This document shows positions 4,130-64,000 of a stretch of DNA of 64,000 nucleotides, piece by piece. The notes beneath the pieces are model-generated. The model did no database searches, was not told the origin of the DNA, and was given only the letters and a program-made list of their open reading frames with translations. The position numbers and the translations under genes are program-made. Source of the stretch: Eledone cirrhosa (taxonomy: Eukaryota); NCBI GenBank assembly GCA_964016885.1, contig OZ024760.1:8618001-8682000 (forward strand). The letters are read 5' to 3'. How positions within the stretch are numbered: position 1 is the stretch's first letter; every line of letters starts with the position of its first letter.

Positions 4130-7021
4130 ACTTCCCAGGAGGTAGCAGCTTGTAATTTCGTGTACCAGCCAAGCTCATGGATGTTATCCAATCATCTTGC
4201 ACGGGGTCTACCCCTGGGTCTCTTTCCTGTTGGTTTTGCCCGTAAAATCTGTCCAGCAATTCTTTCCTGAGACATTCTAACCACATGCCCATAGTATCAG
4301 AGCTGTGATCTCTCGCCTGTTGGTTTTGCCCGTAAAATCTGTCCAGCGATTCTTTCCTGAGACATTCTAACCACATGCCCATAGTATCAGAGCTGTGATC
4401 TCTCGCCTGTTGGTTTTGCCCGTAAAATCTGTCCAGCAATTCTTTCCTGAGACATTCTAACCACATGCCCATAGTATCAGAGCTGTGATCTCTCGCCTGT
4501 TGGTTTTGCCCGTAAAATCTGTCCAGCGATTCTTTCCTGAGACATTCTAACCACATGCCCATAGTATCAGAGCTGTGATCTCTCGCCTGTTGGTTTTGCC
4601 CGTAAAATCTGTCCAGCGATTCTTTCCTGAGACATTCTAACCACATGCCCATAGTATCAGAGCTGTGATCTCTCGCCTGTTGGTTTTGCCCGTAAAATCT
4701 GTCCAGCGATTCTTTCCTGAGACATTCTAACCACATGCCCATAGTATCAGAGCTGTGATCTCTCGCCTGTTGGTTTTGCCCGTAAAATCTGTCCAGCGAT
4801 TCTTTCCTGAGACATTCTAACCACATGCCCATAGTATCAGAGCTGTGATCTCTCGCCTGTTGGTTTTGCCCGTAAAATCTGTCCAGCGATTCTTTCCTGA
4901 GACATTCTAACCACATGCCCATAGTATCAGAGCTGTGATCTCTCGCCTGTTGGTTTTGCCCGTAAAATCTGTCCAGCAATTCTTTCCTGAAACATTCTAA
5001 CCACATGCCCATAGTATCAGAGCTGTGATCTCTCGCCTGTTGGTTTTGCCCGTAAAATCTGTCCAGCAATTCTTTCCTGAGACATTCTCACCACATGCCC
5101 ATAGTATCAGAGCTGTGATCTCTCGCCTGTTGGTTTTGCCCGTAAAATCTGTCCAGCAATTCTTTCCTGAGACATTCTAACCACATGCCCATAGTATCAG
5201 AGCTGTGATCTCTCGCCTGTTGGTTTTGCCCGTAAAATCTGTCCAGCAATTCTTTCCTGAGACATTCTAACCACATGCCCATAGTATCAGAGCTGTGATC
5301 TCTCGCCTGTTGGTTTTGCCCGTAAAATCTGTCCAGCAATTCTTTCCTGAGACATTCTAACCACATGCCCATAGTATCAGAGCTGTGATCTCTCGCCTGT
5401 TGGTTTTGCCCGTAAAATCTGTCCAGCGATTCTTTCCTGAGACATTCTAACCACATGCCCATAGTATCAGAGCTGTGATCTCTCGCCTGTTGGTTTTGCC
5501 CGTAAAATCTGTCCAGCGATTCTTTCCTGAGACATTCTAACCACATGCCCATAGTATCAGAGCTGTGATCTCTCGCCTGTTGGTTTTACCCGTAAAATCT
5601 GTCCAGCGATTCTTTCCTGAGACATTCTAACCACATGCCCATAGTATCAGAGCTGTGATCTCTCGCCTGTTGGTTTTGCCCGTAAAATCTGTCCAGCGAT
5701 TCTTTCCTGAGACATTCTAACCACATGCCCATAGTATCGGAGCTGTGATCTCTCGCCTGTTGGTTTTGCCCGTAAAATCTGTCCAGCGATTCTTTCCTGA
5801 GACATTCTAACCACATGCCCATAGTATCAGAGCTGTAATCTCTCGCCTGTTGGTTTTGCCCGTAAAATCTGTCCAGCGATTCTTTCCTGAGACATTCTAA
5901 CCACATGCCCATAGTATCAGAGCTGTGATCTCTCGCCTGTTGGTTTTGCCCGTAAAATCTGTCCAGCAATTCTTTCCTGAGACATTCTAACCACATGCCC
6001 ATAGTATCAGAGCTGTGATCTCTCGCCTGTTGGTTTTGCCCGTAAAATCTGTCCAGCAATTCTTTCCTGAGACATTCTAACCACATGCCCATAGTATCGG
6101 AGCTGTGATCTCTCGCCTGTTGGTTTTGCCCGTAAAATCTGTCCAGCAATTCTTTCCTGAGACATTCTAACCACATGCCCATAGTATCAGAGCTGTGATC
6201 TCTCGCCTGTTGGTTTTGCCCGTAAAATCTGTCCAGCAATTCTTTCCTGAAACATTCTAACCACATGCCCATAGTATCAGAGCTGTGATCTCTCGCCTGT
6301 TGGTTTTGCCCGTAAAATCTGTCCAGCAATTCTTTCCTGAGACATTCTAACCACATGCCCATAGTATCAGAGCTGTGATCTCTCGCCTGTTGGTTTTGCC
6401 CGTAAAATCTGTCCAGCAATTATTTCCTGAGACATTCTAACCACATGCCCATAGTATCAGAGCTGTGATCTCTCGCCTGTTGGTTTTGCCCGTAAAATCT
6501 GTCCAGCAATTCTTTCCTGAAACATTCTAACCACATGCCCATAGTATCAGAGCTGTGATCTCTCGCCTGTTGGTTTTGCCCGTAAAATCTGTCCAGCAAT
6601 TCTTTCCTGAAACATTCTAACCACATGCCCATAGTATCGGAGCTGTGATCTCTTAATCCGGAGAAGTAGCGGCTCTACCTGGAGTGACTCTCTGGTATTC
6701 GAGTTACGCACTCTATCGAGTAACTTTACTCCAAAGACTATTCGGAGGAATCCCACTTCAGCCCACTTGTGTTCGCGATCGTATTCTTTTGGTCATTACC
6801 CAAGATTCATGACCAGAGGTAAGGGTTGACACAAATACCGAATCGAAGATAGCGAGTTTAGCTTTTACACCTACCTTCCTTCTTCTCATTAGCGAATTCT
6901 GAAACTGACGCATTTCTGCATGAGTTCCTGCAATTCTTGCATTTAATTCAGCCTCCTGCTTTCCATCACTTGTGAACACGACCCCGAGATACTTGAACCT
7001 CTCTACCTGCTTCAGTGGAAC
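4130..7021 (-). mobile_element. RTE-clade LINE 3' part, 5'-truncated, with internal tandem expansion
   Basis: [21 protein letters not shown]...HESWVMT...RVRNS...RSQLRYYGHVVRM...KRPRGRPRAR, typical RTE RT C-terminal region; frameshifted. Confidence 0.9.
4221..6653. repeat. 90-bp tandem array (~27 near-identical copies) derived from RTE coding sequence
   Basis: Unit tctttcctgagacattctaaccacatgcccatagtatcagagctgtgatctctcgcctgttggttttgcccgtaaaatctgtccagc(a/g)at; both ends continue in register into the RTE ORF. Confidence 0.97.
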
Positions 7022-11514: not shown

Positions 11515-12740
11515 AGAGGCATGAAGGCCATTACATCTTCAGAGGGTGGGGGTGAAAGACATGGAGGTCATTACATCTGGTGAGAGAGGGGAGGGGGAGA
11601 GAGGCACGGAGATGAGAGAGGTATGGAGGTCATTACATCTTGAGAGAGGGGGAGAGAGGCACGGAGGTGAGAGAGGTATGGAGGTCATTACATCTTGAGA
11701 GAGGGGGAGAGAGGCACGGAGGTGAGAGAGAGTGGGGAGGGGAGAGAGGTATGGAGGTCATTACATCTTGATAGAGGGGGAGAGAGGTATGGAGGTCATT
11801 ACATCTTGAGAGAGGGGGGAGAGAGGCACAGAGGTGAGAGAGAGTGGGGAGGGGGGAGAGGTATGGAGGTCATTACATCTTGATAGAGGGGGAGAGAGGT
11901 ATGGAGGTCATTACATCTTGAGAGAGGGGGAGAGAGGCACGGAGGTGAGAGAGAGTGGGGGAGAGAGGTATGGAGGTCATTACATCTTGATAGAGGGGGA
12001 GAGAGGTATGGAGGTCATTACATCTTGAGAGAGGGGGAGAGAGGCACGGAGGTGAGAGAGAGTGGGGAGAGAGGTATGGAGGTCATTACATCTTGAGAGA
12101 GGGGGAGAGAGGTATGGAGGTCATTACATCTTGAGAGAGGGGGAGAGAGGCACGGAGGTGAGAGAGAGTGGGGGAGAGAGGTATGGAGGTCATTACATCT
12201 TGAGAGAGGGGGAGAGAGGTATGGAGGTCATTACATCTTGAGAGAGGGGGAGAGAGGCACGGAGGTGAGAGAGAGTGGGGGAGAGAGGTATGGAGGTCAT
12301 TACATCTTGATAGAGGGAGAGAGAGGTATGGAGGTCATTACATCTTGAGAGAGGGGGAGAGAGGCACGGAGGTGAGAGAGGTATGGAGGTCATTACATCT
12401 TGAGAGAGGGGGAGAGAGGTATGGAGGTCATTACATCTTGAGAGAGGGGGAGAGAGGCACGGAGGTGAGAGAGGTATGGAGGTCATTACATCTTGATAGA
12501 GGGGGAGAGAGGTATGGAGGTCATTACATCTTGAGAGAGGGGGAGAGAGGCACGGAGGTGAGAGAGGTATGGAGGTCATTACATCTTGATAGAGGGAGAG
12601 AGAGGTATGGAGGTCATTACATCTTGAGAGAGGGGGAGAGAGGTATGGAGGTCATTACATCTTGAGAGAGGGGGAGAGAGGCACGGAGGTGAGAGAGAGT
12701 AGGGGGGAGAGAGGTAGGGAGGTCATTACATCTTGATGTA
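11515..12740. repeat. purine-rich minisatellite, core gagaggtatggaggtcattacatcttga with variable GA-rich linkers
   Basis: Core repeated more than 20 times with alternating linker variants. Confidence 0.95.
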
Positions 12741-12899: not shown

Positions 12900-13025
12900 C
12901 GTGTGTATGTGTGCAGGTATGGGTGTTATTACATGTGTGGATCTGTATGTTTTAAGTTGTATGTGTACATGTGTATATGTTTCTGTAGTACCTCTACATG
13001 TGTACATGCAGTTATTACCTGCTGA

Positions 13026-13655
13026 GGGCGGTGGGTTGGCAGTATCGGTGGAGGGTCGGACGCCATGTTAGAGCGGTGGGTTGGCAGTATCGGTAGAGGG
13101 TCGGACACCATGTTAGGGCGGTGGATTGGCAGTATCGGTGGAGGGTCGGACACCATGTTAGGGCGGTGGATTGGCAGTATCGGTAGAGGGTCAGACACCA
13201 TGTTAGGGCGGTGGATTGGCAGTATCAGTGGAGGGTCGGACACCATGTTAGGGCGGTGGATTGGCAGTATCGGTGGAGGGTCGGACACCATGTTAGGGCG
13301 GTGGATTGGCAGTATCGGTAGAGGGTCAGACACCATGTTAGGGCGGTGGATTGGCAGTATCGGTGGAGGGTCGGACACCATGTTAGGGCGGTGGATTGGC
13401 AGTATCGGTGGAGGGTCGGACACCATGTTAGGGCGGTGGATTGGCAGTATCGGTAGAGGGTCAGACACCATGTTAGGGCGGTGGATTGGCAGTATCGGTG
13501 GAGGGTCAGACACCATGTTAGGGCGGTGGTTTGGCAGTATCGGTAGAGGGTCAGACACCATGTTAGGGCGGTGGATTGGCAGTATCGGTAGAGGGTCGGA
13601 CGCCATGTTAGGGCGGTGGATTGGCAGTATCGGTAGAGGGTCAGACACCATGTTA
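13026..13655 (+). repeat. 14 tandem copies of the 45-bp SINE 5' head (A-box)
   Basis: Unit gggcggtggattggcagtatcggt(g/a)gagggtc(g/a)gacaccatgtta matches the SINE 5' end seen at 43282; the 15th unit runs on into a full SINE. Confidence 0.95.
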
Positions 13656-13842
13656 GGGCGGTGGATTGGCAGTATCGGTGGAGGGTCGGACGCCATGCTT
13701 TCCAGCATAGTTACGTCCCTTTACGATCTGAGTTCAAATCCCGCCGAGGTTGACTTTGTCTTTCATCCTTACGGGGTCGATAAAATAAAGTACCAGTAAT
13801 GCACTGGGGTAATTGCTGGCCTTGTGCCTAAAGTAGAAACAA
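13656..13842 (+). mobile_element. tRNA-derived SINE
   Basis: A-box tggcagtatcgg, B-box gagttcaaatccc, core tttcatccttacggggtcgataaaat, (ATT) tail; 14-bp TSD ttattacctgctga at 13012-13025 and 13843-13856. Confidence 0.92.
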
Positions 13843-26638: not shown

Positions 26639-26702
<64 letters not shown>

Positions 26703-27709: not shown

Positions 27710-27885
27710 GGGTGGTTCTATCTACGGGGGTGTAAGACAACCACGTAGTAACGTTTCCCCCCTATTGGAGATTTCGATTGTTAAATTTGTTTGTTTCAAT
27801 ATTTTTACCCGACTGTATGTAAAATCCCCGGCATGTGTCTTTGTTTTGCCCCCTTTTCTTGTGCGCCCTTGTGGCAAATAAAGAA

Positions 27886-27886
<1 letters not shown>
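27710..27886 (+). mobile_element. Tx1-like LINE 3' UTR fragment
   Basis: Similar to 28955-29133; ends gtggcaaataaagaaa followed by (TCTA)n. Confidence 0.85.
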
Positions 27887-27975
<89 letters not shown>

Positions 27976-28001
27976 GCAGATAAACAGATATATAGATCTA
28001 T

Positions 28002-28051
<50 letters not shown>

Positions 28052-28120
28052 ATATGTATATCTATAATGCATACACACACATTCACTGATATATATACAC
28101 ACACACACGCACACGCTCAC

Positions 28121-28245
28121 TTGATACGTATGAGATCGTCTCCATTGATATAGAATGACATTAAGCTGTATTTGATACTTGATGTAATCCTGACTTCTCG
28201 GCTCAACTGAGTCGGTGTGACGAGTGCAGGAGGATACATGATACT
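28121..28245 (-). CDS. candidate 125-nt exon of an unidentified host gene
   Basis: ttgtaattgtctAG ... GTgagc; open frame SIMYPPALVTPTQLSREVRITSSIKYSLMSFYINGDDLIRI (a second frame is also open). Confidence 0.35.
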
Positions 28246-28461
28246 CTAGACAATTACAAAGGCCACCAATGACAGCCAGGCCAGATCAGATAACACATCT
28301 TCAACAGTTACAATCCAATCGGACTCTTATCAAACTTTCTTTTGTCTTTATAAACTACATTTTTATCATTTCTTAAATGGTTGGAATCTCACACATACTT
28401 TCCTATCTCCATTATTGGGTGTTTAGCTCATGTCGTGCTGTTGCTTTCGCATGAGTCTTTT

Positions 28462-28545
<84 letters not shown>

Positions 28546-29131
28546 GCGACCTGTGGAACTATGCAGAACAACTGCTGTCGCGTATGGGACAAATACAGTT
28601 GACTGCCGAGTCCATAGTAAGGATCAAACGGCCAGACTCTTTCAAAAACGAAAGAGAGGCGGTTTTCCTCTGTACGGTGGCTATGGTGAAAGAAGTTATA
28701 TGGTGGACGAGGTTGAGAGGACTGAGGACAGATGCCTTTCTCTCCGAACAACAATTGATTCCCTTCTTTAAGTATCACTTTAGAAGGAGAATCAGGGTGG
28801 AGAGAGAGGCACTGCACCCCAGTAAATTTACTGAAAGGTGGGTGAATGAAGCGAAAATGGCCCGAGTGATTGGGCCTTCTCTGTTTATAAGCCTGTAGGT
28901 TGAGGAAGAGAGCAAAAGGAAGAAAGGAGCACTTGCACAACACGCTCCTGAAGTTGAGGGTTGTTCTATCGACGGGGTATTAAACAACCCATTTGTGGTG
29001 CCTCCCCCTTATTGGGGATTTCGATTGTTGAAATTGTTTGTTTTTATATTTTTTACACGACTGTATGTAAAATCCCCGGCATGTCTTTGTATTGTCCCCT
29101 TTCTTGTTGCGCCCTTGTGGCTAATAAAGAA

Positions 29132-29133
<2 letters not shown>
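28546..29133 (+). mobile_element. 5'-truncated Tx1-like LINE (second subfamily)
   Basis: ORF 28584-28898 aligns by eye with the ORF2 C-terminus at 34350-34656; (TCTA)n on both sides. Confidence 0.93.
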
Positions 29134-29188
<55 letters not shown>

Positions 29189-29388
29189 GATAGAGTAAGA
29201 CACGCTTCGCATCGGCTCCGCTATTCCATCGGGATTTACCCTTACTATTGTAAGTACCGGATAAATTTTTTAGTGCAACACATTTGGAACACTAACCCCT
29301 GTTATTTAGGGAAACATTTTTGCATTTACCCCCTTTTTAGGGGGTAAAATAAATATCTATTTTGCCGAAAAATTTCTTTCTTGGCAGC

Positions 29389-31222
29389 ATGGCGGAAAAG
29401 ATGGCAGACATGTCTGCCATTAGCTCTGCCACGCCCCCCAAGTCTGAAGAACAAAAAATAATTACAACAAAATTAGACATTGAAACAAACAAACAAAATG
29501 AAAAAACAAATGTTAAGGAAAATGAGCAAACAGAAAACAAACAAACAGAAAATAATACAAATAACGACAGGGCAACTTTCGCCCAGAAAACAAAGCAATC
29601 CATTACATACACACCAATTGACCTAACTGCCGCCAGAGAAAAACTGGCCGAAGCAAAGAAACATATTGTTTTGGGGGAAAACGGAATGTTTTCCATTAAC
29701 TCCCCCCCAGAATTCAAGAAAGCCAGAGCAGAAAACACAGTTATATACAGAACTATACTAAACCAGTCAAGAAAGCCAGCACAGCCCAGCCAAATGGAAA
29801 TAGAGTTAGTCCTAAAAGACTATATGAAGAATATTCTCTTCATACGAAAGGACCGACTCTATGGCAGCATTTCGGTCCTAACAAGAGACAAAGAAACGGC
29901 GGTTCAGCTTTCCCTAAGCCCACTCTCGTCGACAACATATAGCTTCTATCCCTCCTACATGGGTAGAAGAACTCAGAGAATAAAAGTAAAAACAATGCTG
30001 CCCACAATGGACTTCTGGTGGGCTATTGCTGGCTTCATTGATATGGGCGAAGACACTATGCTGTCAATGGGGAAGGCAACTGGAGATGCGTTCCTGGGAA
30101 TGGGCCTCGACATACTAGTCCAAATGAGGCCCGAAAGAATAGCACAAATCCCGGATCGCATCTGGCTGGATGACCTTACCCCAATAGACATAATTGTAGA
30201 GGGGAGAAGACCAGCATGCTATTTATGCATGGAAAGGGGACACGTTAAGGCTAACTGCCCGAAACGTATCCCCCAAAAAGGACTATTGCCCACACCCACC
30301 ACAAATAGTACACCAGCACCACCCACCTCCAAAAATACACTAATACCACACACAGCAAACAAAATACAGACACCACCAACCACAAACACAACACAAACAT
30401 CACCACCACCAGCACAAACACAAGCACGACACAAAAATCACCACCACCAACCACAACACAAACATCACCACCACCATTACCAACCACAAGCACGACACAA
30501 ACATTACCACCACCACCACCACAAAACCCATTCCAAACAAATAATAAAAAAAACAGTAACAAATCTACCCCTCCCGCAAAAAAAAAACAACCACACAACA
30601 CGTCCCTCCCACCTAGCGCTGAAGAGTTTCCCCCAACTTCTGAAGAAGAAGGAGGAGAAGCCTTCAGACAAGTTAAAAGAAAAAAAAGAAAACACACACC
30701 CAGCACACCACAAATAACCCACACACAAACACCAACTCCAATCAAAAACACCCCACCCTCAACAAACAAAAATAAATCTGCGCCTCCCTCTCCGAAACAT
30801 TGACAGCATCACAAAAAAAGACGTTGCAATACACATATATAAATAAAGAAAACAAAAAACTGGTTAAATTAATAAACAATAACCCTATGGTGCAGACCGA
30901 AGGGCCAAACTTTATCTCAACAGAGAACTTCACCCATTTAAAAATGATAAAGGTCCCTCTGGACCTTTATCGTTCCTTAAAAGAACAATTTAGACGGGAC
31001 GTGAGCCCCCCCTGTTTAAAACCGTTGAATCGCGTCCTCTTGAAAGATTTCCCCATAACCGCCCCTCTCCCTGACACAACTCCAAATACCCCAACCCCAC
31101 CACACACGTGTACCCCCACACCACCACAAAACATCCCTCCACCCAACACACCTGATGCCATGGAAATTACGCCACCCGGAGAGGTAAGTGCTTTTCTTTC
31201 TTCACTTTCAACACCAAAATAG
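29389..31222 (+). CDS. LINE ORF1 (gag-like, zinc knuckle), apparently broken by two frameshifts
   Basis: ATG at 29389; CYLCMERGHVKANC (CX2CX4HX4C); P/T-rich linker continues in another frame from ~30420 (EEEGGEAFRQVKRKKRK) and again from ~30780. Confidence 0.8.
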
Positions 31223-31227
31223 ATCAA

Positions 31228-34200
31228 TTGAGAGTTGGCTGTTTGAACGCGCGTGGCCTGAGCTCAGCTTGGAAGCAAGCAAAGCTTCTAAGTGACCTCA
31301 GGTCACAAAGTATAGATGTGATGGTTGTTTGCGAGAGTCGGATCAGCAGCGTGAGACAGCTGGCGCCCGCCTTCGATGACTTTGAGATGCACGCATCTCT
31401 CTGTCAACCCGGAGGCGGGGGGGGAGTTGCCGTACTGCTGGATAAACGTCTGACTCTCGACGTACAGATTGTTCACTCGGACCCGGGGGGTCGATTACTG
31501 GTGCTGGACGTCGGAGGTGGTGAAGGCGGGGCTTTCAGACTGGTCGGTCTTTATGCTCCCTTCGGGGCGGAGAGAGCCGACTTCTTCCAACGTCTGGAGA
31601 CTTTTCTAGGAACGTCGCGTTCCCTGCTTTTAGTGGGGGACTGGAATGGAATCCTAGATGCGCGTTGGGACTATGCAGGGGCATGTCCCGATAGAGGGGG
31701 GTGTAGCAGCCTCAAGGGGTTACTCGATCGATTCGACCTGGCCGATAGATTTCGACTAGATTGTCCAACTGCGCCAACCTGGACCTGGGCAAACCGCAGT
31801 GGACAATCTAGATCGTACCTAGATAGGTTTTTGGTTAGGAGTAAGGATAGGGACGTATTTAGTTGTCCAGAACTGATCATGGTTGGCTATTCAGATCACA
31901 AATTAGTGACCTGCGTGGTCAACCTTGATAGAACGCATAGACAGGGTCCCGGTTACTGGAAGATGAACTTGTCCTTACCGACAAAGAAAGATTACAGAAA
32001 CCGGATTAGTAGCTTAGTTAAGATGCGGTTGACGGGAGCGATCGTCAACAGTAGGTGGTGGATATCTCTAAAGAGAGAGATTAGAGTAAGTTCGATAGGT
32101 TACAGTAAGGAACTAGCGGCGAATAGAAATAGGAGGGAAAGGGAGTTAACAGATAAACTAGAAGAGGCGATTAGGAGCGGAGACGTAGCCAGAGTGTTAG
32201 CGACGAGAACGGCATTGAGCCAGTTCTTTGACGCGAAGCACGAAGGCTGCGTTGTCCGAAGTAAAATACGTGCTTTAGGAAACGAGGGGACCAAAGCTGT
32301 TAGCTGGGCCCGCGTGACAGAAGCCAAGAGTGGGATTAAATCCACCATTCGGTCTTTGCGAGACCAGGATGGACGGGTGATCCTTGAACCTGAGCGAATG
32401 TGCGAGACCTTTCAAAGGCACTTTGCTCGACTGTTCGGAGGTGGCGGGGGGCCGGACGGGGATGTGGACTTCGGTCCATACCTCGACGGTCTACCGCGTC
32501 TTTCGAGCGGCGAAGCGGAGTGCTGCGAAGGGCCAATCACAGCCACTGAAATCGGGGAAGCGCTCAGCCAATGCAGCAGACGCAAATCCCCGGGTCTCGA
32601 TGGTCTACCATACGAACTTTATTTAGCTATGCCGGTCTTGTTCTCCGAACTCCTCGAGGCTGTCTATTGCAACTGGCAACAGAACGGGAGAATTCCCTGT
32701 TCTGTGACCAAGGGCGTGGTCACGCTAGTGAGGAAGGACGAGAGCAAGGGGGACGACTTAAGTAACTTTAGGCCCATAACTCTGCTGAATGCAGAGTTAC
32801 AGATTTTGGCCAAGGTGTTGACGAAGAGGTTGGCGCTTGTGGTGGGTGGTTTGGTGGGAGACGCGCAGACATGCGCTATCCCGTCCAGGTCCATTCACGA
32901 CAACCTCCACCTCATGCGATACATCATAGAGAGGGTTGGCTACGAACCCGGCTTTGGTGGGGCCCTGATCAACTTGGATCAATCTAAGGCGTTCGATAGG
33001 GTCGACCATGGTTACCTGGATGCGGTGCTAGCGGCGGCGGGCTTCGGACCCGTTTTCAGGGGCTGGATTTCTGCCATGCACAGTGGCAACATCTACTCTA
33101 GGATTAAAGTAAACGGCTACCTCTCGGAGCCGTTTCAAATCACCCGATCCATCAGACAGGGGTGCCCCCTCTCCTCCCTTCTGTACGTATTGACTCTCGA
33201 GCCACTGCTGCGGAAGTTGGAGTTGCTGCGGGGCATACCCCTGGAACCGGGATTGCACAAAGCGGTCTCGGCCTATGCCGACGACGTAACAGTAATGGTG
33301 GCGGACGCCTCGGAAATCGGGGCGATCGCCACCCTACTGGAGGAATACGAAAGGCTGACGGGGGCTAAGCTGAACCAGGACAAGTCAGTCGGTTTGCAAC
33401 TCGGAACGTGGAGGGGCAAACCGATGCCGTTAGACGGTGTCGTCGGGCGGTGGACGGAGGGCCCGGTGAAGCTGCTCGGGGTCTGGTTCGGACCGGACCT
33501 CCAGGTGGAGAAGAATTGGGGCGAGGTGACGAGCAGGGTGTTTGCGCTGACCCAGAAGTGGGCCAAGTGCAAACTATCACTGAAAGGTCGGGCGGAGGTG
33601 ACGAACGCTTACATAGCGTCCGTCATCTACTACCGCCTGACCGTCGTGCCTTGCCCCAAGGAAAAGCTCACCATCATGGAACGCATGCTCTTCCAGTTCC
33701 TCTGGAAGAAGCGGCCTCCCATGGTGAGGAGATCCATCTGCTGCCAGCACCCTTCGAAAGGAGGGCTGGGTATGCCGTGGCTGTTGATGCGTAGGCACGC
33801 ATTGAGGCTACGGCATCTACAGGTATTCCTCAACGGTCAGCCGGTGTGGGCCCCGTTTGTGAGGCGAGCCTTCCCACAGCTCGTCTCGCTCACCGAACTG
33901 CAATCCTGGGTGAAGCAAAGACCGAGAAAACTGGGCAACTGGCACACTGAGTGTGCCCAGGCGCTCACGGCTATCTGGCAAGCGGACCCGACTGTCAGTG
34001 GAGAATCCACCTCGACATTCTATAGAGGGTTGGTGGCTAGCAGGGGCGACGACACCCTTGGAGAGTCGCTAGGCATGGAGGAGGACGAACTGGCCAGCCT
34101 GTTCGGTAGAACTTTCGGCCCGGGACCCATGGACAACTTCCAGAGGTCCCTAGCCTGGCAGTGTTACCGGGGGGCTCTGCCCGTTCGAGAAAAGCTCTAC

Positions 34201-34656
34201 AGACACGGGCGCCCGGGCAGGGATCCCGCGAAAAAGATCTGTCCCAGATGCGTGCGCGACGAGGAAACCGTTGCGCATGCACTGGTACACTGCCCGGGCG
34301 TTGCCGATCTGTGGGGCTACGTCGAACGACTGCTGTCGCGTGTGGCGCCGATTCGATTAACCGCCGAGTCTGTGGTGAACATCAAGCCGCCTCCTCCCTT
34401 CAGAAATGAAGCAGAGGCGGTCTTTCTGTGCGTTATAGCCATGATGAAAGAGGTTGTGTGGTGGACGCGCCTGAAAGGTCTGAGGTCGGGTGACTTTCTC
34501 TCCGGCCATCACCTGGTTTACTTCTTCCGATACCACTTCGGAAGAAGAATCAGGATGGAGAGAGAAGTGCTTGGTCCCAGACAGTTTTATGAAAGGTGGG
34601 TGAAAGAAGCGAGAATGGCCCGTGTAAATGGGCCTTCTCTCTACATTGTTCTGTAG
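31228..34656 (+). CDS. LINE ORF2: APE endonuclease + reverse transcriptase + C-terminal Zn finger (Tx1-like)
   Basis: LNARGL, GDWN, YLDRF, SDH (APE); KSPGLDGLP, FRPITLLN, DQSKAFDRV, RQGCPLS, YADD (RT); GGLG; CPRC..ETVAHALVHC; 1142 codons without a stop. Confidence 0.97.
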   Translation: MRVGCLNARGLSSAWKQAKLLSDLRSQSIDVMVVCESRISSVRQLAPAFDDFEMHASLCQPGGGGGVAVLLDKRLTLDVQIVHSDPGGRLLVLDVGGGEGGAFRLVGLYAPFGAERADFFQRLETFLGTSRSLLLVGDWNGILDARWDYAGACPDRGGCSSLKGLLDRFDLADRFRLDCPTAPTWTWANRSGQSRSYLDRFLVRSKDRDVFSCPELIMVGYSDHKLVTCVVNLDRTHRQGPGYWKMNLSLPTKKDYRNRISSLVKMRLTGAIVNSRWWISLKREIRVSSIGYSKELAANRNRRERELTDKLEEAIRSGDVARVLATRTALSQFFDAKHEGCVVRSKIRALGNEGTKAVSWARVTEAKSGIKSTIRSLRDQDGRVILEPERMCETFQRHFARLFGGGGGPDGDVDFGPYLDGLPRLSSGEAECCEGPITATEIGEALSQCSRRKSPGLDGLPYELYLAMPVLFSELLEAVYCNWQQNGRIPCSVTKGVVTLVRKDESKGDDLSNFRPITLLNAELQILAKVLTKRLALVVGGLVGDAQTCAIPSRSIHDNLHLMRYIIERVGYEPGFGGALINLDQSKAFDRVDHGYLDAVLAAAGFGPVFRGWISAMHSGNIYSRIKVNGYLSEPFQITRSIRQGCPLSSLLYVLTLEPLLRKLELLRGIPLEPGLHKAVSAYADDVTVMVADASEIGAIATLLEEYERLTGAKLNQDKSVGLQLGTWRGKPMPLDGVVGRWTEGPVKLLGVWFGPDLQVEKNWGEVTSRVFALTQKWAKCKLSLKGRAEVTNAYIASVIYYRLTVVPCPKEKLTIMERMLFQFLWKKRPPMVRRSICCQHPSKGGLGMPWLLMRRHALRLRHLQVFLNGQPVWAPFVRRAFPQLVSLTELQSWVKQRPRKLGNWHTECAQALTAIWQADPTVSGESTSTFYRGLVASRGDDTLGESLGMEEDELASLFGRTFGPGPMDNFQRSLAWQCYRGALPVREKLYRHGRPGRDPAKKICPRCVRDEETVAHALVHCPGVADLWGYVERLLSRVAPIRLTAESVVNIKPPPPFRNEAEAVFLCVIAMMKEVVWWTRLKGLRSGDFLSGHHLVYFFRYHFGRRIRMEREVLGPRQFYERWVKEARMARVNGPSLYIVL

Positions 34657-34887
34657 GTGAAGAAGTGAAGAGGAAAGGGGGAGCGCCTCCTCTCTGGGCT
34701 TCCCCCGCGAAAAGAGTTGCACACTTTTCGGGGGTATGTGCAATCCCCAACACGCCCCCTCCCTTTTGAGGACTTTTTATTGTTATATTATTATTGTTAT
34801 TCCTTTTTTCTTTACTCGATTTATGTAAACTCCCCCACTGTGTAAATGTCCCCTTCTTTTGTGCCCTCGTGGCAAATAAATAGAAAT

Positions 34888-34924
<37 letters not shown>

Positions 34925-34999
34925 CACCTCTCTATTTATCTACCTAGCTATCTATTTATCTACCTATCTATCCATCTCTCTCTCTCTCTTTCTTTAACA

Positions 35000-36552: not shown

Positions 36553-37130
36553 AGAGGTTGAGTGACGGGCTATAGTAACGTGAGGTTGAGTGAAGGACTA
36601 TAGCAAGGTGAGGTTCAGTGAAAATCCATAGCAAGGTGAGATTGAGTGAAGGACTATAGTTAGGTGAGGTTGAGTGAAGGGCTATAGGAAGGTGGGGTTG
36701 AGTGAAGGACTATGGCAAGGTGAGGTTGAGTGAAGGACTATAGGAAGGTGGGGTTCAGTGAAAATCTATAGCAAGGTGAGGTTGAGTGAAGGACTATAGC
36801 AAGGTGAGGTTGAGTGAAGGGCTATAGCAAGGTGGGGTTGAGTGAAGGACTATGACAAGGTGAGGTTCAGTGAAAATCTATAGCAAGGTGAGGTTGAGTG
36901 ACGGGCTATAGCAAGGTGAGGTTCAGTGAAAATTTATAGCAAGGTGAGATTGAGTGAAGGACTATAGCAAAGTGAGGTTGAGTGAAGGGCTATAGCAAGG
37001 TGAGGTTGAGTGAAGGGCTATAGCAAGGTGAGGTTGAGTGAAGGGCTATAGTAAGGTGAGGTTGAGTGAAGGGCTATAGCAAGGTGAGGTTGAGTGAGGG
37101 GCTATAGCAAAATGAGGTTGAGTGAAGTCA
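36553..37130. repeat. 28-bp minisatellite gaggttgagtgaagggctatagcaaggt (~20 copies)
   Basis: Direct inspection. Confidence 0.95.
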
Positions 37131-43827: not shown

Positions 43828-44793
43828 CAGAGGTGTATCTAAGGTATGGCAAGCATGTCACGTGCCATGGGTGCCACTTGAAAGGGGGACCCACCTGGAC
43901 TAGGAGCACTTTCTATTAAAGACAGATAAGCTATCGTCTGAGAGTGAAAAAAGAAACTTCTACAGATGTATGATCTGTCTTTTATTATCATGGCTGAGAA
44001 ACACTATGGTGGTTGGATCATTAAACCATTTATATAGATTATTAGGCCCATGGGTAAAAATACAGTGCTGGGAACTACATGATCACATAGGCATACCTCA
44101 TAGTATGACTTGTCAAATATTTTAATAGGGTTTTAATATTTGTCAAAGATCAGTATTAGTCAGATCTCTCCCTTTAATATTTGTCAAAGATCAGTATTAG
44201 TCAGATCTCTCCCTTTAATATTTGTCACAGATCAGTATTACACAGATCACTCCCTTTAATATTTGTCACAGATCAGTATTACACAGATCACTCCCTTTAA
44301 TATTTGTCAAAGATCAGTATTAGTCAGATCTCTCCCTTTAATATTTGTCACAGATCAGTATTACACAGATCACTCCCTTTAATATTTGTCACAGATCAGT
44401 ATTACACAGATCACTCCCTTTAATATTTGTCACAGATCAGTATTACACAGATCACTCCCTTTAATATTTGTCACAGATCAGTATTACACAGATCACTCCC
44501 TTTAATATTTGTCACAAATCAGTATTACACAGATCACCCCTTTAATATTTGTCACATATCAGTATTACACAGATCACTCCCTTTAAATACTCTAACACTA
44601 TTGCCAATACTTTACGTATACTTAAGTATAAAGGATACCTGTAGAACAAATAAAAATACAGTTTAATACCCTAAACCCTCATTTATTTAAACCGCGCTGT
44701 CAATCTCATTGTCTAACAACTACTATATAGCTTGCTGCAGGGGCACAATTTCAATGTTTGCCATAGGTGCTATTTTCTCTTGTTATACCTCTG
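43828..44793. mobile_element. putative non-autonomous DNA transposon hosting a minisatellite
   Basis: Imperfect TIRs cagaggtgtatcta / ttgttatacctctg with subterminal tgccat(g/a)ggtgc at both ends; no TSD found. Confidence 0.45.
44132..44587. repeat. 41-bp minisatellite (~11 copies)
   Basis: Unit tttaatatttgtcacagatcagtattacacagatcactccc. Confidence 0.95.
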
Positions 44794-47845: not shown

Positions 47846-47846
<1 letters not shown>

Positions 47847-48305
47847 TTCTTTATTAGCCACAGGGGCACAAAAGAAGGGGACAAATACAAAGATAGATAG
47901 ATAGATAGATAGATATGTTTCTTTATTAGCCACAGGGGCACAAAAGAAGGGGACAAATACAAAGGGGGAAGTTTACATACAATAAAAACGTGTAAAATAT
48001 TATCACAAATGCAATTTAAAAATTAATCGAATTTCCCCCAATAGGGGGAGACAGTTCATATGGGTAACACATACCCCCGAAAAAATGTGAAACCCTCATC
48101 TCCAGGAGTACGAAGAGTTTGTACTCCTTTCCTCTCCTCCTCCTTTTCCTCAACCTACAGGCTGATATAGAGAGAAGACCCATTCACTTGGGCCATTCTC
48201 GCCCCTTTCACCCACCTTTCATAAAACTTGCTGGGGTACAGCACCTCTCTCTCCATCCTGATTCTTCTTCCAAAGTGGTATTTGAAAAAAAGGATAGATA
48301 GATAC

Positions 48306-48342
<37 letters not shown>

Positions 48343-48390
48343 CATCTTTATTAGCCACAGGGGCACAAAAGAAGGGGACAAATACAAAGA
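47846..48390 (-). mobile_element. three Tx1-like 3' fragments in (GATA)n (47846-47893, 47918-48292, 48345-48390)
   Basis: FFKYHFGRRIRMEREVLYPSKFYERWVKGARMAQVNGSSLYISL* matches the ORF2 end; every piece is bounded by (GATA)n. Confidence 0.92.
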
Positions 48391-50574: not shown

Positions 50575-52329
50575 GGGATGTACAATCAATTGGTCAGTAA
50601 TTGACCAACATCTAGATGTGTGGTGTACAACCATTGGTCAGTATTTGACCACCATCTAGATGTGTGGTGTACAGCTATTGGTCAGAGATTGATCATCTAG
50701 ATGTGTGGTGTACAACCATTGGTCAGAAATTGACCACCATCTAGATGTATGGTGTACAACCATTGGTCAGTAATTGACCACCATCTAGATGTCTGGTTTA
50801 CAACCATTGGTCAGAAATTGACCACCATCTTGATGTGTGGTGTACAACCATTGGTCAGAAATTGACCACCATCTTGATGTGTGGTGTACAACCATTGGTC
50901 AGAAATTGACCACCAACTTGATGTGTGGTGTACAACCATTGGTCAGAAATTCACCACAATCTAGATATAGGATGTACAATCAATTGGTCAGAAATTCACC
51001 ACAATCTAGATGTGTGGTGTACAACCATTGGTCAGTAATTGACCACCATCTAGATGTGTGGTATACAGCTATTGGTCAGAAATTGACCATCTTGATGTGT
51101 GGTGTACAACCATTGGTCAGTAATTGACCACCATCTTGATGTGTGGTGTACAACCATTGGTCAGAAATTGACCATCTAGATGTGTGGTGTACAGCTATTG
51201 GTCAGTAATTGACCATCTAGATGTGTGGTGTACAACAATTGGTCAGTAATTGACCACCATCTAGATGTGTGGTGTACAGCTATTGGTCAGAGATTGACCA
51301 CCATCTAGATGTGTGGTGTACAACCATTGGTCAGAGATTGACCACCATCTAGATGTGTGGTGTACAACCATTGGTCAGAGATTGACCACCATCTAGATGT
51401 GTGGTGTACAACCATTGGTCAGAGATTGACCACCATCTAGATGTGTGGTGTACAACCATTGGTCAGAGATTGACCACCATCTAGATGTGTGGTGTACAAC
51501 CATTGGTCAGAGATTGACCACAATCTAGATGTGTGGTGTACAACCATTGGTCAGAGATTGACCACAATCTAGATGCGTGGTGTACAACCATTGGTCAGAG
51601 ATTGACCACCATCTAGATGTGTGGTGTACAACCATTGGTCAGAGATTGACCACCATCTAGATGTGTGGTGTACAACCATTGGTCAGAGATTGACCACAAT
51701 CTAGATGTGTGGTGTACAGCTATTGGTCAGAGATTGACCATCTAGATGTGTGGTGTACAATCAATTGGTCAGAAATTGACCACCATCTAGATGTATGGTG
51801 TACAACCATTGGTCAGTATTTGACCACCATCTAGATGTATGGTGTACAACCATTGGTCAGAAATTGACCATCTAGATGTGTGGTGTACAACCATTGGTCA
51901 GAAATTGACCATCTAGATGCGTGGTGTACAACCATTGGTCAGAAATTGACCATCTAGATGCGTGGTGTACAACCATTGGTCAGAAATTGACCACCATCTT
52001 GATGTGTGGTGTACAACCATTGGTCAGTATTTGACCACCATCTAGATGTATGGTGTACAACCATTGGTCAGAGATTGACCACCATCTAGATGTGTGGTTT
52101 ACAACCATTGGTCAGAAATTGACCACCATCTTGATGTGTGGTGTACAACCATTGGTCAGAAATTCACCACAATCTAGATATAGGATGTACAATCAATTGG
52201 TCAGAAATTCACCACAATCTAGATGTGTGGTGTACAACCATTGGTCAGAAATTGACCATCTAGATGCGTGGTGTACAACCATTGGTCAGAAATTGACCAT
52301 TTAGGTGGTCAGTAATTGATCATCTAGAT
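50575..52329. repeat. 44/41-bp palindrome-rich minisatellite (~40 copies)
   Basis: Unit tctagatgtgtggtgtacaaccattggtcagagattgaccacca. Confidence 0.97.
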
Positions 52330-52469: not shown

Positions 52470-54610
52470 TATGTTGCTGTGCTTAATGATGTCAGTAATG
52501 TCATTAATGAAGATGATGAAGAGAAGTGGACCCAACACAGTGCCTTGCAGGACGCCACTACTGACTTTGGCTGGGCTTCATTTAACTCCTTCGACTACAA
52601 CATGTTGGGCTCTGTTTGACAGGAAACACTTGATCCACTGCAGCAACTTTCCAGTGACACCAATGTTAAAAAAAATAGTTTTCTTAGTAGAATGTTTTGA
52701 TCAACCCTGTCAAAGGCCCTTCTGAAATCAAGGTAGATGACACCAGTGTTGGATCCCTCTCCCAAAGCTCTCAAAATGTCATCAAAGTGATATAGTGGCT
52801 GCGTTAGGCAATCCCTTCCATTACGGAATCCATGTTGGTTGGAGTTCAGTAGATTGTTGCTTTCAAGAAAGTGAGTAATTCGTGATCTCACCACCCTCTC
52901 AAATACTCTAATAATATGAGAGGTGAGTGAGATTGGACGGTAATTCACGACAAGGGACTTGTTTCCCTTTTTGAAAACTGGGACAACAGACTGGGATAGT
53001 AGGTTTTATGGTATATATTCAGCTTCCAGTGAGTTCCTCCACAGATTAGCAAGAGGAGATGCAAGTTGGTGTCGACACACTGTCAGGACACAAGCAGGGA
53101 ACCTATCGGGGCCTACTGCTGAATTGTGTTTAGTTTCGTTTATTACGGCTAAGGCATCAGGGCCGCTAAACGTTATGTCCGATATAGTGTGTTGGGGATT
53201 AACATCACTGATACAGCCCAGATCGGCCATATCAAGATTGCTGAAAACAGAGCAGTATTGTTTCTGCAGTATCTCACCCATGGTTTTAGCATTATCTTGG
53301 AGAGTGCCATGTTCATCAACTAGAGCGCCAATAGGGGAGCCAGTAACTTTATGCTTTTCGCAAATGAAAAGAACACTTTGGGATTGAGTTTGATTTTCTC
53401 AATGGCCCAGGCCTTTTCTGCTGCTCTTTGGTTGTTGATGATGGACATCATGGTGTTTTGGAGGTTGTGTCTTTTCTAGTGATGTAATGGCAGTCAAATG
53501 GGTGTGTTGTTGCTGGCAGTATTTAAGTTTGTTGATTTGTTTTGTTAATTCTTTTAATTTTTCTGATAAGTGTTCTTCTATTTATAGGGATCCTGCATTT
53601 ATATTTGTTTACAGATCTTAATGGGGTTTGTTTTGCACATATATTTGTGTCTACAAATGTCTGCCAGGATTTTTTTTTATGTTAGTGGGTGTGTATGTGT
53701 GTGGGTGAAAGACCAATCAACATGTGCAAGATCATGATTGATCGCTTCCCAGTTTACAAATGGATGGGATGGAGAGATGTCATTGGGTTTTGTTTTTGGA
53801 CGGTGGATCTCAGATCACAGAGAACCATGTCGTGGTCTGAGAGTAGAGTTTTTTCCACTGCAATATTGTGGATAGTGTCAGTGTGGTTACGGAACATTGG
53901 GTAAAAGATGTTTTTGTAGCACCTTGTTGGTTCGGGTACAAGTTGAGACAGGAAAAACTCATCCATGAAGTCAGGAAGCGATTCTATTGCCTCCTTGTCA
54001 GAGGTTGAGGTGGAAAAACCTGGTATCAAGTTGTTTGTGGACCAGTCAACACCAGGGAGGTTGAAGTCCTCCATCATTAAGATGTTGCCAGAGTGACACT
54101 GTTGAATGAAACACTTTATGCTGTTGAGGCATTCCTTGAAGCATGGTAGAGGCGCTTCGGGTGGCCTATAGAGCCCCACAACTATTAAGTTGTTGGTTTT
54201 ACTGTACACAGAGACTACTTCACAGTATCCATTGGCAAATAAGTTCTTAGCCTTTGTCGAAAAAGAATTATGTACAAAAATGGCAGTCCCACCCTTTCTT
54301 CTGCCAGCGCGATCTGCACGGACAGCTTTGAAATTTTTCACTTTCACCTCGGCTTCCAAGTGGAGGTTAGGATGGTCAGCAAGCCAATCCTCAAGAAATT
54401 TGATCTTCCATTTTTGAGTGTTGGTGGAAGGGCTGATGCCTTGAGCATTAAGCAAAAATGTTGAGGTTAAAATGGTGGCTGATTTTGATTGTTTTGGGGG
54501 TTTGTTTGTTAATGGCAGCAATGGGAGTTTGTGCAGCAGGGTGGTAGTCGAGGGTGGTGTTGGCTGATGGCCAGAATCTTTTTTGTAGTTCTTTTGCCAC
54601 ATTCATTATG
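52470..54610 (-). mobile_element. CR1/L2-group LINE ORF2 remnant (APE + RT), degenerate
   Basis: LNAQGI, RADRAGRRKGGTAIFV, LYRPP, DFNLP, SDH; GPD, NYRPISLTS, QHGFR, YLDFRRAFDRV, QGTVLGPLLF; multiple frameshifts. Confidence 0.92.
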
Positions 54611-61700: not shown

Positions 61701-62157
61701 TTTGGAGCGAAGACGGGAGAGATACGCAGTGATCTACATGTGGAAAATCCTGGAGGGACTAGCACCAAACTTTGGCATTGGGAGCTGGACCAACCGTCGA
61801 ACAGGACGTTACTGTGTGGTGCCAAAGGTCCCGTCTTCCACATCTAGAATAAGGAGCAGGTATTGCAATAGCCTGGGATTCAAGGGCCCTCAACTCTTCA
61901 ACAGGCTGCCGAGGCATCTGAGAGACTTGCATGACGTGGAGGTGGATGTCTTTAAGAAACATCTCGACACCTTGTTATCCAGGATCCCGGATGAGCCCAC
62001 AGCAAGACACGAAGGAAACCTAAGGGCAGCAGCAACAAACCCACTCTTACACCAGTGGCCAACCTATACAGGCTGCAGATAAAATGTGTAGCAACAAGGA
62101 CGGTGCCCCAGCATGGCCTCAGCCGGATGGCTGAAACAGGTAAAAGAGTAAAAGAGT
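61701..62157 (+). mobile_element. CR1-like LINE 3' end
   Basis: [23 protein letters not shown]...GPQLFNRLP..LR...FKKHLDTLL..IPDEP; 3' UTR cggtgccccagcatggcc..gctgaaac, then (gtaaaaga)2. Confidence 0.88.
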
Positions 62158-62330: not shown

Positions 62331-62563
62331 ATATATTTATATATATATATATTTATATATATTTATATTTATATATATTTATATTTATATTTATATATAT
62401 TTATATTTATATATATATATATATAAATATAAATATATATAAATATATATATATATATTTATATTTATATATATATATATATATAAATATAAATATATAT
62501 AAATATATATATATAAATATATATAAATATAATATATATAAATATATATATATATAAATATAT

Positions 62564-62594
<31 letters not shown>

Positions 62595-62626
62595 AATATA
62601 TATATATAAATATAAATATATATATA

Positions 62627-63324
62627 TGGGCATCAACATATGTTAACCTTGGTCTTCCCCTTCTAGTGTGTCCATGAAGGGGCTCCCAAAGGAGCACTGA
62701 GTGCAATGTCAACTCTGGATGTCGGTGAGCATGTCCAGCCAACCTCAGTCTCCTCTGTGTCACTTTTGAGCTGACTTTTGGGATGCTCCCATACAGCTCT
62801 GAGTTTTTCATCCTCAGTGTATACTGATTAATGTTCAGAGCCATCCTCAGCATTCTCGTGTAGCACCCATCCACCATCTGAGTGAGTCTCTTGGTCAGTG
62901 TCTAAGTCTCAGACCCATATAGCAGCACAGACTCCACTACTGTAGCACCGGCTCAGAGCAGGAGAGTTGGGGCGAAAAAGGTATCGGATGCTGAATTTGC
63001 CGGACGACATAGTTTTGGTGACAAATACAGTGAAGGTGGCAGAGGATTTGATGCGGGAGGTTGAGACTGTGTCGATGAGTGTGGGGCTGAGAATGAATGA
63101 GACTAAAACAAAATATCTGGTAGAGAATCTTGAGAAGCCAGAGGGGATCACTAATGTAGGCGGAAGCCGCTGGAATTGGTTGAGGACTTCCTGTATTTGG
63201 GAGCAAAGATTGGGAATACGGAAGATGATGTGGTTGAGAGGAAGAGCAAGGCTTGGGCGGCGTGTCACAGCTTGAGATCGGTGTGGAAGTCGGACCTTCG
63301 TAGAGACCTGAAAATCCGCCTCTT
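62627..63324. mobile_element. RTE-group LINE fragment with an inverted 5' segment
   Basis: Minus strand 62947-62627: [26 protein letters not shown]; plus strand 62945-63324: EFA/DDIVL..N..KTK..DFLYLG..LKIRL. Confidence 0.88.
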
Positions 63325-63378
63325 ACATATTTATATTATATATTTATATATATATATTTATAGATATATATATATATT

Positions 63379-63431
<53 letters not shown>

Positions 63432-63479
63432 ATATATATATATTTTATATATATATATATATTTATATATATATACATT

Positions 63480-63510
<31 letters not shown>

Positions 63511-63513
63511 ATT

Positions 63514-63546
<33 letters not shown>

Positions 63547-63614
63547 ATTTTATATATATATATATTTATATATATATATATTTATATATATATATATTTA
63601 TATATATATATATT

Positions 63615-63647
<33 letters not shown>

Positions 63648-63666
63648 ATTTATATATATATATATT

Positions 63667-63725
<59 letters not shown>

Positions 63726-64000
63726 CATATATATATATATAATTTACATATATATATTTATATAAAATATATATATATATTTATATATATATATATTTTA
63801 TATATATATATATGTAAATTATGTAAACTATAATATATATGTGTTTGTCTATATTGTATCTGTATTATTTTGACCGCGGTCAGTCAATGGCAACATTGAG
63901 GACCGAGTAAGTTAGATCGCAGATATGTATATATAAAAAGACAGCGAGAAGCGAAACGAAACCAACCAAACAGTGAGTGTGTTCTGTTATTAATTCTGGC

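Follow-up and report, generated by a model that had tools for sequence, protein, structure and literature searches.

The stretch analyzed here (the window) comprises 64,000 nucleotides of Eledone cirrhosa contig OZ024760.1, positions 8,618,001 to 8,682,000, and is animal DNA rich in microsatellites. It holds one 5.7-kb copy of a long interspersed nuclear element (LINE), copy C, together with five 3' fragments, A and B on the plus strand and F, D, and E on the minus strand (Table 1). All six 3' ends display the same signals in the same order, namely GCC-CYYGT-GGC, AATAAA, 3 to 5 further bases, and a (TCTA)n array. The junction reads exactly AATAAAGAA followed by ATCT in three of the six ends and is displaced by 1 or 2 letters in the other three. 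Poly(A), (TA)n, or (CA)n was found at none of the six ends in the window, in agreement with a first-pass annotation of this sequence, which had remarked that no copy ends in the commoner (TA)n or (CA)n. Perfect AT arrays number 58 (1630 bp) and AC arrays 18 (818 bp), compared with 10 arrays of AGAT, that is, TCTA/TAGA (436 bp); by length, (TA)n and (CA)n exceed TCTA two- to fourfold.

Table 1. Pieces of the element and adjoining TCTA arrays, in coordinates of the window (ORF, open reading frame; UTR, untranslated region)
Feature	Positions	Strand	Description
Copy A	27710..27886	+	177-bp 3'UTR fragment; 86% identical to B
Copy A flanks			5' TG/TA-like; 3' (TCTA)15, then immediately (TAGA)7
(TCTA)15 3' of copy A	27887..27946	+	From perfect-array scan
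(TCTA)21 at copy B 5' junction	28462..28545	+	Non-element DNA upstream of array
Copy B	28546..29131	+	5'-truncated: final 117 ORF2 codons and 3'UTR
(TCTA)14 joining B and C	29132..29187	+	
Copy C	29188..34888	+	5.7 kb, looks full-length
ORF1 of copy C	29389..31222	+	One CCHC knuckle, low-complexity middle; split over three frames
ORF2 of copy C	31219..34656	+	1145 open codons: APE endonuclease, reverse transcriptase, C-terminal zinc finger; start ATG missing
Copy C 3' terminal signal	34863..34888	+	GCC-CTCGT-GGC mini-hairpin, AATAAA, junction; motif common to all six pieces
(TCTA)n 3' of copy C	34889..34924	+	Degenerates until about 34993
Piece E	47846..47893	-	46-mer identical to F and D end; then (TCTA)8
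Copy D	47919..48294	-	Final 44 ORF2 codons and 3'UTR; TCTA at either side
Piece F	48345..48390	-	46-bp 3' end; 5' side (TCTA)5, 3' side (TCTA)8

The terminal 110 to 120 nucleotides (nt) fold no better than shuffled sequences (z -1.0 to 0.15). The mini-hairpin appears in four of five minimum-energy folds with only 3 to 4 pairs, and the case for it is conservation of the motif. Copies A to D are 73 to 86% identical to one another, the ORF2 C termini of B and D (117 and 44 codons) contain no stops, and the ORF2 tail of B has 65% amino acid identity to C. Since this divergence is concentrated at third codon positions, which carry excess change (C versus B, 23/25/50 by position), the (TCTA)n association, as read from these copies, extends across several subfamilies; the first-pass annotation had likewise described divergent, stop-free C termini from several subfamilies.

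ORF2 begins with an apurinic/apyrimidinic (APE) endonuclease domain (PF03372, E 1.8e-11) that retains all catalytic residues (N10, E39, Y112, D141, N143, D202, D226, and H227). Its predicted structure (predicted local distance difference test score 81) matches the L1 endonuclease 1vyb (Z 27.1, root mean square deviation 2.9, 228 aligned), a match tied within 1 Z with cellular ExoIII/APE1. A reverse transcriptase follows (PF00078, E 1e-23), and the C terminus carries a CCHC finger (C1008, C1011, H1020, and C1025) invariant across four aligned rows, where zf-RVT matches with E 2.9e-5 and 25.1 bits, short of the Pfam cutoff of 27.5. Residues 6 to 855 align with human L1 ORF2p (E 3e-48), which is also the nearest among solved structures, and R2 proteins score 2e-23 or weaker. 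On these comparisons the element belongs to the L1 group of retrotransposons without long terminal repeats (non-LTR retrotransposons). In ORF1 of copy C, a domain scan matched neither RRM nor Transposase_22, and the CCHC knuckle scores 17.3 bits, under the cutoff of 20.8. Tx1 ORF1 has been described as Type I-like, with RRM and/or zf-CCHC and without Transposase_22 (PMC5203782). The makeup of ORF1, with a CCHC knuckle and no Transposase_22 match, seems consistent with Tx1, and the element would probably fall within Tx1 proper. The closest named relatives are proteins of Argonauta hians (59 to 64%), pointing to a probable octopod host.

Copy C is damaged. ORF1 breaks fall within about 30309 to 30717 and 30774 to 30803, in low-complexity or homopolymer stretches, and may be real or assembly errors. 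ORF2 had been called intact; its frame is open, but its opening codon is ATA, at a position that is Met in the Argonauta relative P0278, and no in-frame ATG occurs before codon 35, which lies past the catalytic Asn10.

The six ends do not amount to six loci. Three head-to-tail copies ending in AATAAA and (TCTA)n had been reported on the plus strand. All three ends are as described, but A and B are separated by about 516 bp of unrelated DNA (27946 to 28461), leaving B and C as the sole abutting pair rather than an array of three. The (TCTA)n noted at the 5' junctions of B and C is present at both, but that of C doubles as the 3' flank of B and is not independent. The minus-strand cluster at 47846 to 48390 repeats the junction pattern, as had been stated; because E, F, and the 3' end of D share an identical 46-mer cut at the same base, it is, judging from that identity, one complex event and not three separate insertions. 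Three independent loci remain, and two of them (B and F) have TCTA as their outer 5' flank. With all window TCTA taken as background (0.3% of positions have TCTA upstream), the chance of finding it at two or more of three loci is 2.7e-5. This statistic favors targeting, provided that insertion itself writes no TCTA on the 5' side. A family has been considered site specific when the same target occurs in more than 20% of flanks (PMC4494074); here, in one window, TCTA occupies 6/6 3' flanks and 2/3 outer 5' flanks. The repeats that define the targets of Kibi, Koshi, and the crocodilian families, (TC)n, (TTC)n, (TTCC)n, or (TTTC)n, were seen at none of the six junctions, all of which are (TCTA)n. 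Because two solitary loci show (TCTA)n at both sides, the element probably does target this repeat.

Two findings weigh against simple targeting. First, the outer 5' flank of copy A is TG/TA-like, as the first-pass annotation had acknowledged, which is one negative among only three loci. Second, 8 of the 10 TCTA/TAGA arrays of three or more units in the window adjoin an element piece. Of the remaining two, one is the inverted continuation of the copy A tail, and one is free (26641 to 26700); weak end-like sequence lies upstream of the free array, 3% of background scores equally high, and it was left uncounted. Both findings fit an element whose (TCTA)n is a self-encoded tail, like TGTAA in UnaL2 or TAA in the I element, and whose random insertions seed GATA microsatellites, with template jumping onto the tail, or local duplication, producing the 5' TCTA. 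Eight adjoining arrays are more than expected were free targets plentiful, E and F would be local re-copying of the 3' end together with the repeat, and other clades likewise include elements with repeat tails (PMC3747384). However, non-element DNA precedes both the (TCTA)21 of B and, on its far 5' side, the (TCTA)5 of F, and these arrays hence are no element's tail; site-specific elements, moreover, also have truncated copies without the target on the 5' side (PMC4640811). We therefore regard a self-encoded tail with random insertion as unlikely. Still less credible, to the point of being very improbable, is that assembly created the 5' TCTA junctions as a by-product, or that recombination between (TCTA)n arrays did so in joining the pieces. 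The window is very repeat rich and the ORF1 breaks fall in low-complexity or homopolymer stretches, but B and C are 27% divergent, every junction is clean, and near-identical ORF2 DNA is indexed in sequencing runs of three organism labels (shares 0.40 to 0.72, from the index only). The index search with the element returned 15 runs from 11 studies (21 rows), with no RNA run among those listed; nine of the rows, with small shares of 0.05 to 0.17, were left out of account. The proposal of a GATA-repeat-specific, Tx1-like lineage thus holds as an L1-group LINE tied to (TCTA)n, on thinner evidence than had been stated, with three loci and one of them negative.

An alignment search recovered a sister clade, whose contigs are animal-like but had been binned into a bacterial metagenome-assembled genome (MAG; G001); its ORF2 is about 41% identical. 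In a quick tree, which kept 74 rows, dropped those with fewer than 380 aligned residues or with stops, and included no named Tx1, the window element and the sister clade form a 12-row set with a Shimodaira-Hasegawa-like approximate likelihood ratio (SH-aLRT) support of 100. Sister ORF1 is homologous to that of the window (28%, E 4e-14), and its CCHC knuckle passes the cutoff (21.3 bits). The sister elements form head-to-tail arrays of about 6.5-kb units with no microsatellite; 67 3' ends occur in one assembly, 13 of them on a single 91-kb contig. Their 3' end consists of GGC-CTNGT-GCC, a second hairpin, and AATAAA, and it thus has the loop CYNGT in common with the window element on a reversed stem (GGC..GCC versus GCC..GGC). 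None of 58 distinct sister ends has A6 or TCTA within 30 nt. As separate observations, the bacterial MAG representative CAXXMW01 holds at least 16 contigs of animal-like LINE arrays (C3 to C19, L073 to L143), which we read as binning contamination, and array units are up to 99% identical, with some truncated units duplicated.

We compared 32 sister loci. Thirty-one fall into seven groups with endonucleases 90 to 96% identical between groups, and one stands at 43%. The sequence after AATAAA is unrelated between the seven groups and is likewise different in the 43% locus. Linkers between units are 11 to 19 nt and nonrepetitive. In three groups, an 11- to 18-nt tag also trails the last unit into non-element DNA; it is seen at four array ends (contigs C9, C19, C17, and C5), with C9 and C19 sharing the tag and then diverging. 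The endonuclease hairpin-loop sequence is identical in the three tag-bearing groups. The sister tag thus moves with the 3' end and sometimes matches the site, which makes it a candidate for a role in site choice. Two other kinds of target were considered and rejected. A telomeric array is not indicated for the sister clade, as (TTAGGG)3 was absent from G001, an incomplete assembly. As for RNA genes, window positions 30000 to 64000 gave no Rfam match at gathering score, and none of six sister loci came near threshold.

That sister junctions change while the endonuclease stays 90 to 96% identical points to pairing by the RNA tail, and we tentatively propose that this L1-group, Tx1-like LINE prefers (TCTA)n through such pairing with the nicked target. 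Cleavage of mRNA usually occurs 10 to 30 nt beyond AAUAAA. Because AATAAA lies 3 to 5 bases from the junction, a transcript would run through this signal into the flanking repeat and gain a (UCUA)n tail; in the sister clade, the tail would instead carry the subfamily tag. The APE endonuclease would cut into the (TAGA)n strand, with T/A as the probable nick site, as in L1, and the 3' flank would then begin with ATCT, a register that is exact at half of the ends and nearly so at the rest. The (UCUA)n tail could pair with the nicked strand and prime reverse transcription, with copying starting inside the RNA and bypassing poly(A). Every insertion would restore the target repeat, so that the preference would be inherited and new copies could settle beside old ones, as with B and C, and a founder landing in (TCTA)n would start a lineage that keeps choosing it. 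The D/E/F cluster may stem from local slippage or from renewed priming at the RNA tail, and tuning of the endonuclease to the repeat may have come later. Pairing would explain the uncopied poly(A), the rebuilt sites, and the side-by-side copies. In R2Ol, read-through RNA annealing to the target raises insertion (PMC6530143). L1 nicks at T/A, and the freed DNA end must pair with L1 RNA, with four or more matched bases required and the last 10 weighed (PMC3649969).

Alternatively, recognition of (TCTA)n/(TAGA)n may lie with the APE endonuclease itself, the assumption made for Kibi, Koshi, and further members of the Tx1 clade, with RNA pairing secondary. Target choice is attributed chiefly to the endonuclease in published accounts (PMC4494074; PMC3812793, the latter adding that the mechanism is poorly understood), and the first-pass annotation had looked to the endonuclease as well. 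All catalytic residues are intact. Copies 73 to 86% identical have kept one repeat, whereas a target set purely by RNA might drift. But sister subfamilies with near-constant endonucleases show unrelated junctions, and the missing poly(A) at 6/6 ends demands internal priming regardless. The endonuclease is thus a candidate source of specificity, from which the sister junctions point away and with which the endonuclease changes described below would fit. We consider recognition mainly by the endonuclease somewhat unlikely, and it and RNA-tail pairing are not mutually exclusive.

It is also important to set out what weighs against RNA-tail pairing. The octopod lineage shares endonuclease changes, as a specialized nuclease might, in all four members covering the region: ETR/ESR replaces QETH, and 4 to 5 residues are inserted. 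These lineage-wide changes adjoin the active site, and the hairpin loop is shorter than in the sister clade. Ahead of the first sister unit, the tag is present at only two of five array starts (C17 and C6), and the starts of C19, C4, and C3 resemble the tag no more than background does (0.09, 0.65, and 0.34, respectively). The tag may be nothing but the element's own end, and in four of the seven groups the linker might instead belong to the 5' end of the unit. Moreover, it is in relatives about 41% identical, and not in the window lineage, that the tags were observed.

A broader form of RNA-tail pairing, which we think rather unlikely, is a cephalopod-centered L1-group clade without a fixed target, in which each subfamily's guide is copied from its own 3' flank. 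The guide would pair with nicked DNA and bring new copies to matching sites. One branch would thereby have given rise to 90-kb head-to-tail arrays with subfamily tags, and octopods to a (UCUA)n guide and a GATA-repeat specialist.

Searches beyond the sister clade yielded 72 metagenome loci and 4 genome loci, all distant (mostly 22 to 39%), with a TCTA/TAGA array at 1 of the 76, in a relative of 26%. The 24-letter 3'-end motif had no match in metagenome, viral, or genome contigs, and protein scans of viral contigs found no relatives. Four bacterial MAG contigs (L113, L114, L116, and L118) carry L1-group ORF2 genes (28 to 31% identical), likely through further eukaryotic contamination.

Some further features of the element and the window deserve mention. 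A putative splice donor with the consensus sequence AG/GTAAGT lies directly upstream of ORF2 in copy C (31178 to 31189) and in 7/8 sister groups (L074 to L103). In B, C, and D, the stop codon of ORF2 is set in a pyrimidine-rich, acceptor-like TAG/GT context (34626 to 34660 in C). Putative splicing at these sites would excise ORF2 and yield an ORF1-only RNA. A candidate 5'UTR intron is also possible: copy C (29250) and 7/8 sister groups have a donor-like GTAAG 50 to 130 bases into the 5'UTR, and copy C (29372 to 29391) and 5/8 sister groups have, immediately 5' of the ORF1 ATG, an acceptor-like CAG. The arrays that follow copy A form an inverted repeat (27887 to 27973). Elsewhere in the window, a second, decayed LINE (52688 to 54602, minus strand), distant from the TCTA-associated family, retains APE and reverse transcriptase remnants, and C-terminal pieces of other LINEs (61732 to 62082 and 62407 to 63742) are broken up by long (TA)-rich arrays. 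Minisatellites occupy 4219 to 6653, 11591 to 12737, 13025 to 13697, 36554 to 37127, 44132 to 44586, and 50579 to 52299, with periods of 90, 38 to 107, 45, 28, 41, and 44, respectively.

Our literature search found no GATA/TCTA-targeting LINE; Repbase and Dfam entries were beyond its scope. The GATA-repeat-associated, Tx1-like lineage is real and has probably not been described before. At a minimum, the few LINEs listed as targeting microsatellites gain a new repeat, GATA/TCTA, and a new animal group, and one element becomes linked to a class of microsatellites in octopods. A (TCTA)n branch beside a sister with seven junctions on a near-constant endonuclease makes the question of protein versus RNA tail directly testable. 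If the tail does steer insertion, this would be relevant to RNA-based gene insertion tools; if the guide is copied from the flank, altering 10 to 20 RNA bases would retarget the LINE, and its landing site would be reprogrammable.

Among known systems, microsatellite-targeted APE LINEs use ACAY, AC, TC, TTC, and TAA, by a mechanism called not well understood (PMC3812793), and crocodilian Tx1 families target (TTCC)n/(TTTC)n (PMC4494074). Kibi in (TC)n, Koshi in (TTC)n, and crocodilian Tx1 are likewise APE-type L1-group LINEs in a short-unit microsatellite (PMC4494074, PMC3812793); compared by target alone, the window element differs in its unit, TCTA/AGAT, and its invertebrate host. Waldo in (ACAY)n, Mino in (AC)n, and Dong in (TAA)n (PMC3812793), as well as Togen in (TG)n (PMC4640811), are microsatellite-targeted non-LTR elements too, with other repeats. 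An octopus repeat annotation lists L1-Tx1 with 13 recently active families and 421 insertions (PMC13282606); the octopus L1-Tx1 families (PMC13282606, PMC8967140) probably represent this class of element within the same group of animals, and the available text of these reports counts families and states no target preference. The window element shares with its sister clade ORF1/ORF2 homology, the hairpin loop CYNGT with AATAAA, the lack of poly(A), and head-to-tail neighbors, whereas the sister clade differs in its long homogeneous arrays, nonrepetitive linkers, absence of a microsatellite, and reversed hairpin stem. Waldo, Mino, Dong, and Togen presumably belong to other clades (R1, R4, and NeSL-related). 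In R2Ol and L1, as proposed here, 3' RNA pairs with the nicked target, raising or biasing priming (PMC6530143; PMC3649969). In R2, however, the protein fixes the site, and L1 relies on its poly(A) tail, whereas in the window element the paired sequence would come from the donor flank and could vary between subfamilies.

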